Source: an uncultured bacterium
GTDB taxonomy: Bacteria; Hydrothermota; UBA3073; NMUJ01
Assembly (NCBI GenBank): GCA_965612795.1
Contig: CBFDTI010000034.1
Span: 1-13,503 of the forward strand
Length of the DNA: 13,503 bases
Direction: 5' to 3'
Shown piece after piece: positions 9,904 to 13,503 of the stretch (the stretch's first letter is position 1; each line of letters starts with the position of its first letter). The notes below the pieces were generated by a model that saw only the letters and a list, made by a program, of their open reading frames with translations, searched no databases and had not been told where the DNA came from. The position numbers and the translations under genes were made by a program.

Positions 9904-11022
9904 GTGATGAAAGATCTTCCGGTGAAGCCACCTGATAAATCTTCTATAACTGATGGTGGTTTAGTAGTACACAAAAAGTTACGCGATCGTCTCAACATAG
10001 GTATATTGACGTTGGGTAACTTTGGCAACAACATGATGCGTTTCTTACTTAGGAATAGGTTGCCAAACGTCCGCTACATAGCAATGGATACGGATCGCCA
10101 ACATCTTGCTCAGATAAAAGCCGAAAGTTTCAGCGAATTCTTCAGCGAGGTCATAGGGGAAAATATCACCCACGGTAGGGGTACAGGTGGTAATATTGAC
10201 AGAGCGAACGAAATTTTCGAATCTGACAAACCCAACATCGCCCAGTATATCGAGGACTTACACTTTCTATTCATAATTGCTGGATTAGGTGGTGGCACAG
10301 GCGCTATCGCACCACTGATTGCGGAGCTGGCCAAAACCAAGAATATACTGACAATAATGGTGCTGGTATACCCTTTCTCTATGGAAGGTGAACGCAAAAA
10401 AGAGATAGCCACTAAGGTGCTGGAAGCCAGCTCCCGTGTAGCAGACGGTACCATTGTTTTTCACAACCAGACACTTATCCGTCACCACGGGGATATGCCT
10501 ATCGAGCGTGCGTTTGATCAACTCAATGCCCAAATTTTTGATACAATCCAAGCTCTGATAAATCTGATTGCCGATTCCGGTACTATAAACGTAAGTCTTG
10601 GCGATATCGAAAATATACTTTGCAAAAAAGAAAGTGACCACGAGATCGCAATATTAATTGGCGAAGGTACCGGTATAAATCGTAACGAGATTGCCACCCA
10701 ACGTATTATCGAGCAGTTCGAACAACACTGTAAACTTAACACTATCCATAAGCTGTTGTTGTACGTGCAAAGAGGAGAAGACTTCAAGCTAATCGACTTA
10801 CAAAGGATTGTCGATAAATTAAAACACCAAATGTCGGCACAGGATATTTCAATCCGCATAAGTACACCCTATAGGGATATGGAGGATACAGTCCGTATAA
10901 TTGCTTTACTTAAAGGTAGTAAGGCTGATAAGCTAACCGAAGAACCTGACATATTATCACTTCCACCTGAGGAACTTGAATCCAAAATTATCACCGGCAG
11001 CATTAACAGGAAACGTAGGTAA
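9904..11022 (+). CDS. Divergent FtsZ/tubulin-family GTPase-like protein
   Basis: FtsZ-like motifs occur in the right order: IAMDTD.QHL, IGENITHGRGTGGN, FIIAGLGGGTG.IAP.IAE.AK...ILT, YPFSMEG, G.INV...DI, G.GTG.NR. Several signature residues are altered. The start may be GTG 9904 or ATG 9907. Confidence 0.88.
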   Translation: MMKDLPVKPPDKSSITDGGLVVHKKLRDRLNIGILTLGNFGNNMMRFLLRNRLPNVRYIAMDTDRQHLAQIKAESFSEFFSEVIGENITHGRGTGGNIDRANEIFESDKPNIAQYIEDLHFLFIIAGLGGGTGAIAPLIAELAKTKNILTIMVLVYPFSMEGERKKEIATKVLEASSRVADGTIVFHNQTLIRHHGDMPIERAFDQLNAQIFDTIQALINLIADSGTINVSLGDIENILCKKESDHEIAILIGEGTGINRNEIATQRIIEQFEQHCKLNTIHKLLLYVQRGEDFKLIDLQRIVDKLKHQMSAQDISIRISTPYRDMEDTVRIIALLKGSKADKLTEEPDILSLPPEELESKIITGSINRKRR

Positions 11023-12288
11023 TTACTCACCTTTGTCGGTATCTAATACCTCCACATAAGCACCACCCTTGGCAAGTTTTATGTAAAGGTGGTCACCTTT
11101 CAGGATTTCGTCTACACTTGTTATTACTTTTTTCTTGTCTGGTCGAAACACTATACTGTAGCCACGTTCTAGAGTGGCAAACGGGTTCAGATTTGCCAAC
11201 TGTGTGTAAAGGTAGGCAAGTTTTTCCGATCTCGATTTCAAAACTGTGACAACATTATGCTCCAATCTATCGGATAAATGTGACACCTCCCAGCTTATTT
11301 TATCTATGTGATGTAGGAACTGCTCCTCCATCCTACGTTCGACGACGCCTAACTGTTGTACCTTTTCATGTATGTAATCACATAACCTGGTGAGCCCGTA
11401 ACTCTTTTCCCAAGTTTTGATCCGCTCCCTGTAGTTTTCCAGCATCCTGCTAACAACGGTGTCCATCCTCTGGTTGAGGTTTGTTATGTATTTCAATAAC
11501 TCTTTTCTATCAGGGGTGGCACGTTCAGCTGCTACCGATGGTGTCGGTGCACTATAATCTGCCACCATATCAGCAATCGTATTGTCGAGTTCATGCCCTA
11601 TACCGGTGATTATGGGGATAGATGATTTAAATATCGCCTGAGCAACACGTTCCTCATTAAACGCCCACAGCTCCTCCATCGAACCGCCACCTCTACCAAC
11701 TATTATAAGATCAACCTCACCATAATCGTTCATGTCATAAATACCATCGGCTATACTCTCGGCTGCCGCTTCGCCTTGTACTTTGACACCCCTGACGATT
11801 ACCTCAACCCATGGTGCACGCCTACGTATTACACGTAATATATCGTGAAACGCAGCCCCATACATTGCAGTTACCACCCCAACCCTCTCCGGGAATCGGG
11901 GTATCGCCTTCTTATGCTCTATGGCGAAATAACCCATTGAGTGTAGCTTCTTTTTTGTGGCTTCAAACTTTGCCCAGAGGTCGCCCAAGCCTGACGGATA
12001 AACGCGTTGCACATCTATAGTTAATCCCCCTCGCTTAGCATACAGTGTAAGGGTGCCGAAGACTTTCACCTTCATACCATTTTTCAGTAGTGCAGTGTTT
12101 AAATCGCGTCGCTCTTTGTACACAATAGCGGATACCATGGCACGTTCATCCTTAAGCGAAAAATATAGGTGCCCCGAACTTGCCGCATAAAGATCCATGA
12201 CTTCACCCTCAACCCAAACCATGGGATATGTATCTTCAACCAGCTTACGTACTTCAAGCAATAGTTCACTCACTGTATATACTTTCAT
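11023..12288 (-). CDS. xseA: Exodeoxyribonuclease VII large subunit
   Basis: VYTVSEL, VWVEGEV, SSGHLYFSLKD, GVVTA..GAA.HDI, VQGE.A, IIVGRGGGS.EELWAFNEE, GIGHE.D.TIAD.VAD..APTPS.AAE, LNP..TL.RGYSIV. Confidence 0.97.
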   Translation of the reverse strand: MKVYTVSELLLEVRKLVEDTYPMVWVEGEVMDLYAASSGHLYFSLKDERAMVSAIVYKERRDLNTALLKNGMKVKVFGTLTLYAKRGGLTIDVQRVYPSGLGDLWAKFEATKKKLHSMGYFAIEHKKAIPRFPERVGVVTAMYGAAFHDILRVIRRRAPWVEVIVRGVKVQGEAAAESIADGIYDMNDYGEVDLIIVGRGGGSMEELWAFNEERVAQAIFKSSIPIITGIGHELDNTIADMVADYSAPTPSVAAERATPDRKELLKYITNLNQRMDTVVSRMLENYRERIKTWEKSYGLTRLCDYIHEKVQQLGVVERRMEEQFLHHIDKISWEVSHLSDRLEHNVVTVLKSRSEKLAYLYTQLANLNPFATLERGYSIVFRPDKKKVITSVDEILKGDHLYIKLAKGGAYVEVLDTDKGE

Positions 12289-12719
12289 TTAAACCACACT
12301 TCTTCGTGTGGTTCGTATCCCTCCAACTTCTTCACTATGTGGGGTGTGAAACTCTTCTTATTGCTGAACCATCGATTTATGTACTTCATACAGATAACAT
12401 ACAATGCAAACAGCGTACCACCACCAGCATATGCGAAAGCTACCCCCTTCCAAAAGTATAGCGATACAAACCCTATGATAAAAGCCACCACTGGTAACAC
12501 AAACAGGAGCAACGAAGCCAACCACGTACCTTTGGGATCCACCTCCACCAGAACAGTATCACCCTTATTAACCCCCACTGTATCCTTAACCTCTATGACC
12601 ATTTTGTTAGCGTTAGGCTGACACAACCCATGTAATGGACAGCGTTCACATGAGGTCAGTCTCAGCTCCACACGCGCTGTGGTACCTTCGACACTTATGA
12701 CCTTACCCCGATTTAACAT
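12285..12719 (-). CDS. RseC/MucC-family (SoxR-reducing system-like) membrane protein
   Basis: From ATG 12719: G.V..VEG..A.V, CxxCxxxxxC (CERCPLHGLC), GD.V.VE, two TM helices (ASLLLFVLP...). 144 aa. ATGA overlap with the xseA start. The longer start at 12821 lies deep inside the rpoN-like gene. Confidence 0.88.
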   Translation of the reverse strand: MLNRGKVISVEGTTARVELRLTSCERCPLHGLCQPNANKMVIEVKDTVGVNKGDTVLVEVDPKGTWLASLLLFVLPVVAFIIGFVSLYFWKGVAFAYAGGGTLFALYVICMKYINRWFSNKKSFTPHIVKKLEGYEPHEEVWFK

Positions 12720-13503
12720 GTTTTTTACGTCGGGTGAAAAACCTAGAGAGTGGAAATATCCCACGTGGTGTCTGCACATACTTACCACGTAGTGCATATA
12801 AAATGGTGGATATCGGTACACCTAATGTGGGAGCGGCCTCTTCTATCATTACAGGGGTAAGATCTGCCTCACCACATAAAAATTGATGTACCCTTTCTAC
12901 AAGAAAGTTGCCAATCTCTATTAGCAAATTACGCCTTCTATCAAGGTTGCGCAGAAATTCGAACGCCTCCTGTTTCATAGTTTCGAGCAACTTCTGCTCT
13001 TCCTTTGTAAGCTCATTTTTATATATGAGTGTTTCGTATTCTTTGAAATATCGGATCTTGGGTATCATTGCCTCGTTTAAATAGACTTCGAACCTATCGT
13101 CCAACTTGTCGATGATCAGGTCAGGCAACACCGATAGAGGTTCACTCTCCTGCCATGCCTTAGCAGGAAACGCTGTAAGTTTATGCAATAAGGCGCATGC
13201 GGTTTTGACCTCTTCCTCGGGACGGCTCAGAAGCCTTGCAAGGAATGCGGTATCACTTCCTATCATGGGGAGGTAGCGTTCCACCAACAGATACGGTAGA
13301 TCGTCTTTCACTCCTAACCTACGCAACTGTATGAGTAAAGATTCCATAGCGTTACGAGCCGCAATCCCTGGTGGATCGAGCTCTTCCTGTATGGCGATCA
13401 GGACTTTACCGACTTTCTCCGTATCAACGTTAAACCTTTTCGCTATATTTTCCAACGGTATCGTAAGGAACCCCCTATCATCAAGGTTGTATATGATATA
13501 TTC
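12703..13503 (-). CDS. rpoN: RNA polymerase sigma-54 (RpoN)-like protein, 5'-partial, lacking the C-terminal RpoN-box domain
   Basis: Frame is open to the window end (EYIIYNLDDRGFLTIPLENIA...). Core-binding motifs NLDDRGFL, LDPPGIAARN..ESLLIQL, PDLII, DRRRNLL..I...LVE...FL, L.P..IEE.A..LGV..STI, KYVQTPRGIFPL..FF. Stop comes 10 residues after FF. Confidence 0.9.
   Translation of the reverse strand, partial: EYIIYNLDDRGFLTIPLENIAKRFNVDTEKVGKVLIAIQEELDPPGIAARNAMESLLIQLRRLGVKDDLPYLLVERYLPMIGSDTAFLARLLSRPEEEVKTACALLHKLTAFPAKAWQESEPLSVLPDLIIDKLDDRFEVYLNEAMIPKIRYFKEYETLIYKNELTKEEQKLLETMKQEAFEFLRNLDRRRNLLIEIGNFLVERVHQFLCGEADLTPVMIEEAAPTLGVPISTILYALRGKYVQTPRGIFPLSRFFTRRKKHVKSG

Follow-up and report, generated by a model that had tools for sequence, protein, structure and literature searches.

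A shortened gene for sigma-54 (rpoN) lies at the end of the 13,503-nucleotide stretch of DNA analyzed here (the window), which is one whole contig (C34) of a 1.42-Mb, 128-contig, 99.5% complete genome assembly (GCA_965612795.1) of an uncultured vent bacterium from a genus of the candidate phylum WOR-3. The window holds the 3′ part of this gene on the minus strand (12703 to 13503; 801 nt, or 266 codons and the stop), in a frame that is open from 13503 to the stop codon at 12703 to 12705 and ends in ...KYVQTPRGIFPLSRFFTRRKKHVKSG. The 5′ end is on contig C22, whose first 77 bases repeat the end of the window; joining C34 and C22 by script across this overlap gave a 378-codon open reading frame (ORF) with zero internal stops, the first 112 codons of which are on C22. 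The ATG of the joined gene stands immediately 3′ of the stop codon of lptB (TIGR04406, 359.5 bits against a cut-off of 240). At its other end rpoN overlaps by 17 nt a gene encoding an RseC/MucC-family membrane protein (12285 to 12719, minus strand; PF04246, 1.4e-20), with which it shares an apparent operon, and xseA, encoding the large subunit of exonuclease VII (11023 to 12288, minus strand), closes the run of genes in this direction. Between 10900 and 13503, neither a promoter-like site nor an excess of terminators was found. The original prediction, made from the letters of the window, had claimed that the frame ends in TRRKKHVKSG and a stop without an RpoN box, that its helix-turn-helix (HTH) carries the motif PISTILY (12796 to 12816), and that the next gene starts 17 nt inside its end, with the ATG at 12719; all three claims were confirmed on the sequence.

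Profile matches and alignments define which parts of sigma-54 are left (all coordinates are on the minus strand). The Pfam model of the core-binding domain (CBD), Sigma54_CBD (PF04963), matched the part in the window with an E value of 3e-34 and the whole protein of a congener (G001) with 3.5e-42; the window carries the C-terminal three quarters of this domain (profile positions 34 to 185 of 185; 13036 to 13503). Sigma54_DBD (PF04552) matched at 2.2e-14 over profile positions 4 to 93 of 160 only, the half that comprises the extra-long helix (ELH; 12892 to 13005, including a conserved DRRR motif) and the HTH scaffold, which has a degenerate recognition helix (12790 to 12846). A conserved post-HTH segment, RGKYVQTPRGIFPLSRFF (12736 to 12789), is followed by a novel 10-residue tail, TRRKKHVKSG, and the stop (12703 to 12735); in the alignment this tail replaces the whole RpoN domain that reads the −24 promoter element, and it overlaps the start of the next gene. 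At the N terminus, Sigma54_AID (PF00309) reached 12.1 to 14.6 bits against a cut-off of 23.8 and covered only profile positions 19 or 20 to 46 of 46. Aligned with eight full-length RpoN proteins of WOR-3, the truncated protein lacks about 10 to 17 N-terminal residues of region I and ends 10 residues past the FF pair, where the full-length proteins run 65 to 75 residues further and include the ARRTVxKYR box. The sigma-54 model TIGR02395 is covered from position 15 to 365 of 434 at 227.9 bits, short of the equivalog cut-off of 277.35; G003, a relative from the same order, gives 371.5 bits over positions 3 to 434. An AlphaFold2 model (predicted local distance difference test score [pLDDT] of 82.9) has helices in region I, a folded CBD, the ELH as a long helix (residues 279 to 316; pLDDT of about 90), and the HTH, with the acidic region II and the tail disordered, and its best fold matches are the sigma-N/sigma-54 chains of holoenzyme structures (E value of 5e-20). 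The prediction that both DNA recognition modules are lost or changed and that the RNA polymerase-binding part is intact was borne out by Pfam (CBD matched, DBD half matched, AID below cut-off), TIGR02395, and the alignment.

The truncated gene is real and not an artifact. Its division between two contigs joined by an overlap of only 77 nt is what could be said for an assembly error where rpoN meets rseC or where the contig ends, an explanation to which we attach practically no weight. Logan contigs from four other sequencing runs of four studies (hydrothermal-vent and marine metagenomes) bridge positions 12700 to 12730 with no insertion, deletion, or joint, and beyond 13500 the loose ends of the bridging contigs read as C22 does. 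G001 and the members of a sequence cluster have the gene in one piece: the G001 gene has the same 378 amino acids (aa), is 90% identical over the whole protein, ends in FFTRRKKHVKSW, and stands in the same gene order as here (a 145-aa ORF, lptB, rpoN, the rseC-like gene, and xseA). In this cluster, of 23 members at 90% identity, 14 of the 15 members listed are 378 aa long, on contigs of up to 60 kb, and a frameshift near residue 341 sets apart the sole exception (351 aa). The tail is the same but for the last residue (G or W) in 15 of 16 other sequences of the genus, and the genus also conserves the 17-nt overlap between rpoN and the RseC-family gene. The junction and the upstream part of the gene, which is an uninterrupted frame, had been named in the original prediction as places where it could fail, and both were found in its favor, as was the truncation point shared with a congener. 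Source databases label the proteins of this cluster "hypothetical protein [candidate division WOR-3 bacterium]." In a third genome of the genus (G002, 66% complete), the locus on contigs C12 (locus L014) and C37 shows in-frame deletions, a fusion of lptB to rpoN, and runs of X, and the RseC-like gene has a duplicated 10-aa stretch. These oddities most likely reflect poor assembly of this metagenome-assembled genome (MAG), which was used for presence/absence counts only.

The gene is under strong purifying selection and is not decaying, as the original prediction had proposed for a maintained protein rather than a pseudogene. In a comparison of this genome with G001, the ratio of nonsynonymous to synonymous substitution rates (dN/dS) of rpoN was 0.076 by the NG86 method and 0.139 by YN00, against 0.100 and 0.131 for lptB, 0.087 and 0.130 for xseA, and 0.234 and 0.428 for the rseC-like gene. 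By region (NG86), the ratio was lowest in the CBD (0.047) and the ELH (0.061) and higher at the N terminus (0.125) and from the HTH to the end (0.128). The 144 nucleotide differences in rpoN divide into 103.7 synonymous and 40.3 nonsynonymous changes, a nonsynonymous share of 28% where 78% would be seen under neutrality (binomial P value of 6e-38). When 144 substitutions were placed at random, the frame stayed open in 653 of 20,000 trials. A lack of stops could also result from translational coupling to the gene downstream, but the low level of amino acid change could not. Since the truncation is common to all members of the genus, the constraint acted on the truncated form.

Constraint is unevenly spread over what the protein has kept of its family. 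Among columns at least 80% conserved in 73 full-length homologs (picked from 120 listed, with fragments and some near-duplicates left out), the genus retains 10 of 11 in the post-HTH segment, 28 of 42 in the CBD (with many of the changes being I/L exchanges), 7 of 16 in the ELH, 5 of 11 in region I, 3 of 11 in the HTH, and 0 of 22 in the C-terminal domain, which is absent. Four residues that are 100% invariant in the family are replaced, including the arginine of the HTH, which is tyrosine here and histidine in G001. This arginine belongs to the STVSR motif, whose S and R are 99 to 100% conserved in the 73 full-length homologs; the motif is changed in all five genus members aligned, with S-T kept, the following serine turned to leucine, and the arginine to tyrosine or histidine. 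Using relatives' ORFs found by phmmer (28 for rpoN and 21 for lptB), the mean identity of the genus to the others was 0.298 for rpoN against 0.371 among the others and was 0.609 in both cases for lptB. The terminal branch of the genus was 1.43 for rpoN, the longest of 21 (median, 0.39), and 0.38 for lptB (median, 0.23). An acceleration of the rpoN stem that is not seen in lptB points to a burst of change followed by tight constraint.

The usual partners of sigma-54 are missing from the genome. Profile searches found no second Sigma54_DBD match and no second rpoN, full-length or otherwise, in this genome, as the original prediction had proposed to check, and no second rpoN in either congener searched. 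No stand-alone RpoN domain was found either: when the missing domain was modeled as a 73-position profile from eight WOR-3 relatives and searched for, with all filters off, in 29,765 six-frame segments of the genome, the best E value was 5.1. Bacterial enhancer-binding proteins (bEBPs; PF00158, E ≤ 1e-10) were found in none of the genus's three genomes, whose completeness is 99.5, 87, and 66%, and the best PF00158 matches of this genome (27.9 bits) are ClpB/ClpC-type proteins. In the same set of 41 genomes, 37 of the 38 other WOR-3 relatives have bEBPs, with 1 to 15 each. The sole relative without one, G005 (same class, 97% complete, 1.5 Mb), is also the sole genome without an rpoN match and represents complete loss, an outcome alternative to the truncated form. 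The rpoN frames of the remaining relatives are 427 to 492 aa long, except for one 171-aa fragment in G019 (81% complete). The sigma repertoire of this genome is small, with two Sigma70_r2 matches. The promoter motif TGGCAC-N5-TTGC has two exact matches in the genome, neither of them intergenic, and exact matches are few also in relatives with full-length sigma-54; with up to one mismatch, 6 of 62 matches are intergenic (9.7%, in a genome with 12.2% noncoding DNA), which is a weak test. The ratio of motif to control does not separate carriers from noncarriers of sigma-54 across the 41 genomes, being about 4 in G005 and 1.6 to 2.1 in the genus. As a separate observation on the activators, many WOR-3 relatives carry the AAA+ domain of sigma-54 activators inside frames of about 1,190 to 1,800 aa (for example, G015:C169:34448-34948, G025:C6:81652-82152, and G012:C2:280172-280672), with the others listed being mostly 330 to 730 aa.

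Similarly truncated proteins occur in gut Clostridiales. Among the 148 matches listed from outside the genus, three (P0143, P0168, and P0274) end no more than 16 residues past the end of the match. P0143 is joined by the Clostridiales proteins P0285 to P0288 and P0317, which are 379 to 383 aa long and 44 to 52% identical to it; they have up to 52 member sequences each, on contigs of up to 78 kb, with no AID match on record. The Clostridiales forms stop 2 to 5 residues past the (Y)FF, and the TIGR02395 match ends at position 364 in both L045 and P0317, 363 in P0168, and 365 (of 434) in the WOR-3 genus. S-T-V-S-R is lost in all eight truncated rows of the alignment and kept in all four full-length rows. 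A P0287-type gene was located in three genomes (loci L045 to L047), those of a Clostridiales MAG, Clostridiales bacterium CHKCI001, and "Candidatus Fimimorpha faecalis." None of the three has a bEBP (E ≤ 1e-10) or a full-length rpoN, and the truncated gene is the only DBD match above the cut-off. It is a lone gene, flanked on the opposite strand by genes for a P-type ATPase and a spermine-synthase-like protein. Its dN/dS, calculated by NG86 only, was 0.051 for a close pair (dS of 0.44) and 0.066 to 0.072 for the two distant pairs, which have dS values above 1 and give rough ratios.

Phylogeny argues that the truncation arose repeatedly. In a tree of 42 hand-chosen rows, which include 15 of the 27 loci of WOR-3 relatives, the Clostridial truncated forms nest within Clostridial full-length RpoN (support of 99), with a full-length protein as the sister of P0317. 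The approximately unbiased (AU) test rejected a single clade of all ten truncated rows (P value of 6e-45), a clade of the genus with the main Clostridial group (P value of 0.0011), and a single clade of the six Clostridial truncated forms (P value of 0.004); it did not reject a grouping of the genus with the full-length WOR-3 proteins (P value of 0.60). On these trees, the truncated form appears to have at least three independent origins, one in the WOR-3 genus and at least two in Clostridiales lineages.

Several other short frames came up in these searches. P0058 (378 aa) and P0075 (348 aa) were rejected as members of the class; they have the RpoN box and lack the N terminus and are partial genes. 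P0274 (408 aa) was rejected as well because it is cut past the same region yet keeps STVSR. P0274 and P0283 (408 aa, on contigs of up to 393 kb), which stop shortly past that region with the canonical HTH motif kept, may represent a recent break, in contrast to the old, remodeled truncations. Positions 30 to 73 of the Sigma54_DBD profile, its HTH part, have weak matches (about 18 bits) inside frames of 367 to 382 aa in Clostridiales (G043:C45:5014-5148, G043:C195:28426-28521, and G042:C36:26330-26425). The Atlas also lists Bacillota sigma-54 clusters with representatives of 354 to 377 aa, known by length alone.

The setting of the gene differs between the genus and its relatives. The RseC-like gene adjoins rpoN and xseA in this genus only; in the relatives G003 and G025 it is found in unrelated surroundings, away from both, and the G025 homolog carries an extra C-terminal Cys-rich segment. 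The 145-aa ORF upstream of lptB (L002:1133-1570, minus strand) has no Pfam match at an E value of ≤1e-4 and sits where relatives have an LptA/OstA-like gene; it is kept in G001 with 88% identity and a dN/dS of 0.15 to 0.23. Tail to tail with xseA, at 9904 to 11022 on the plus strand of the window, is a gene for a 372-aa tubulin/FtsZ-family protein (PF00091, 1.2e-27) with an N-terminal extension and no other Pfam match at an E value of ≤1e-4.

In canonical sigma-54, the ELH-HTH reads the −12 element and the RpoN domain the −24 element; region I and the ELH jointly prevent melting until about 30 residues of region I are gripped and translocated by a bEBP (PMC11839083). The primary core-binding determinant is placed at residues 120 to 215, and alanine-cysteine pairs at positions 383/384 and in the RpoN box left 0% in vivo activity with wild-type-like core binding (PMC2715252). 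Combined with the kept core-binding body, the losses described above lead to the simplest prediction, that of a promoter-blind partner of core polymerase. We propose that an ancestral rpoN, the positional ortholog after lptB, may have lost its C-terminal RpoN domain by deletion or rearrangement in one genus of WOR-3, that decay would then have followed in the HTH recognition helix, the reader of −12, and in the N-terminal stretch of region I gripped by bEBPs, and that all bEBPs were presumably lost from the genome. The remainder (the end of region I, acidic region II, CBD, ELH, HTH scaffold, and post-HTH segment) is under strong purifying selection. Judging by its conservation and predicted fold, it would still bind core RNA polymerase as sigma-54 does but be unable to pick −24/−12 promoters or to be switched on by an ATPase; it could park the core enzyme or compete with sigma-70-type factors. 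We regard such a core-binding derivative with a parking or competitor role as somewhat probable, with modest confidence.

Of the readings offered by the original prediction, a core RNA polymerase binder or decoy appears to be the best remaining, a sigma factor with new specificity keeps a smaller chance, and two others fared poorly. A titrator of bEBPs is not supported, given the lack of bEBPs in all three genomes of the genus and of the N-terminal part of region I that they engage. For a split sigma factor, completed in trans by an RpoN domain from another gene, no second PF04552 match was found in the genome; the best six-frame E value of 5.1 speaks against it, though a highly diverged domain could escape a sequence search, and the Clostridiales matches outside the gene are weak and fall on profile positions 30 to 73 rather than the RpoN box. 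We give this idea hardly any credence. Only marginally more credible is a nonfunctional relic that outlived the sigma-54 regulon and persists by chance or for the sake of downstream translation. The bEBPs are indeed gone, G005 has lost the gene entirely, and a Neisseria rpoN-like sequence, for which relic status has been proposed, is described with no protein or phenotype (PMC6755734); but a dN/dS of 0.08 to 0.14, equal to that of neighboring essential genes, and a P value of 6e-38 are hard to reconcile with neutrality, coupling would select against stops and not against amino acid changes, the length is constant in 14 of the 15 members listed, and independent lineages retain the same form down to 44 to 52% identity.

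Two further alternatives assume a function. The protein may be an activator-independent working sigma factor, with promoters chosen through a partner protein or by the altered ELH-HTH, which would recognize a new element. The known "bypass" mutants would be mimicked by a protein without the region I N terminus and −12 recognition, and bypass transcription is described for sigma-N mutants poor at −12 (PMC6755734); moreover, the ELH and HTH scaffold are constrained (dN/dS of 0.06 to 0.13), and with only two Sigma70_r2 matches in the genome an extra sigma factor could be useful. We nevertheless consider this unlikely: the recognition helix is the least conserved part and varies between and within the independent lineages in a way that looks like relaxation rather than new specificity, polar DNA-facing residues have turned hydrophobic, removal of the RpoN box abolishes activity in the model system (PMC2715252), and the WOR-3 and Clostridiales loci share no conserved neighbor gene. 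A role outside transcription initiation, or a target other than polymerase, for instance together with the overlapping RseC-like membrane protein, seems to us more doubtful again. The 17-nt overlap is conserved in the genus and the hydrophobic HTH surface could serve as a protein interface, yet the RseC-like gene does not adjoin rpoN in relatives, in Clostridiales the gene is solitary, with unrelated neighbors on the other strand, and the best-kept part of the protein is the core-binding domain.

Several points weigh against a promoter-blind polymerase partner itself. The protein is known here from its gene sequence, core binding is argued from conservation and fold only, and a parking or competitor role has no direct precedent for sigma-54. 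The sole truncated form described, that of Neisseria, gave no detectable protein and no phenotype in the account of PMC6755734. With rpoN lost altogether in G005, the remnant cannot be needed everywhere. The test of promoter motifs is a weak one, since exact matches are few in relatives with full-length sigma-54 too. Among the supporting data from Clostridiales, the completeness of the three genomes is not given and the groups compared by the AU test were named after the tree had been seen.

Sigma-54 is normally viewed as a unit of promoter reader and activator-dependent switch. Here the reader, the handle of the switch, and the activators are gone, and the conservation of the rest as tightly as essential neighbors points to a function of the polymerase-binding body alone and suggests an unrecognized job for the truncated form, which by our count has arisen at least three times. 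We tentatively suggest, as a broader and more speculative idea, that such "headless" sigma-54 proteins could constitute a recurrent, unnamed class, in which the DNA-reading heads and the activator handle are shed when a lineage gives up its bEBPs and the polymerase-binding body is kept, over time worth hundreds of millions of substitutions, for a promoter-independent job, such as a reserve of core RNA polymerase or the tuning of sigma competition. If this were true, full-length sigma-54 would have a second function too. A function of this body alone is open to direct tests on the purified protein and in Clostridiales bacterium CHKCI001 (L046), a carrier that appears to be an isolate. Since the Pfam DBD model spans both halves, the truncated proteins still score as "CBD + DBD" and would be counted as normal sigma-54 in surveys of domain architecture; NCBI's stricter model drops the WOR-3 forms to "hypothetical protein." In the literature searched, we found no description of this class apart from the inactive Neisseria sequence.

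Compared with canonical sigma-54 (sigma-N, RpoN; TIGR02395), the WOR-3 form shares the C-terminal half of region I, region II, the CBD, the ELH, the HTH scaffold, and the post-HTH segment, as well as the position after lptB and a predicted fold like that of sigma-N chains. It differs in having no RpoN domain or box, no region I N terminus, no HTH arginine and neighboring serine, and no bEBP in the genome, and it scores below the equivalog cut-off. The Clostridiales truncated forms (P0143, P0285 to P0288, and P0317) are cut at the same profile position, have no AID match, and have lost STVSR, and the P0287-type gene (L045 to L047) resembles the WOR-3 gene in the absence of bEBPs and full-length rpoN from all three genomes and in its dN/dS of 0.05 to 0.07; unlike the WOR-3 gene, the Clostridiales forms arose inside the Clostridial RpoN clade and stand alone, outside any lptB operon, in genomes of 2.4 to 3.4 Mb rather than 1.4 Mb. 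Neisseria's rpoN-like sequence (RLS), also mentioned in PMC12316311, is described as frameshifted or deleted, with 34 peptide variants of 120 to 289 aa, in a species, N. meningitidis, for which that account gives no known GAFTGA bEBP and reports that neither RLS protein nor phenotype was detected (PMC6755734). It and the atypical meningococcal sigma-N are likewise shortened forms of RpoN without an RpoN box in hosts without GAFTGA bEBPs; as described there, however, the Neisseria forms lack the HTH region or all DNA-binding parts, whereas the WOR-3 form has one fixed length, an ELH-HTH scaffold, and strong constraint. Parallels are also offered by laboratory truncations and bypass mutants of sigma-54, in which loss of the RpoN box or of positions 383/384 is reported to kill promoter-dependent activity while core binding stays (PMC2715252) and defects in region I or −12 recognition permit activator-independent initiation in vitro (PMC6755734). 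Those proteins were engineered, whereas the combination found in WOR-3 is natural, fixed, and conserved.

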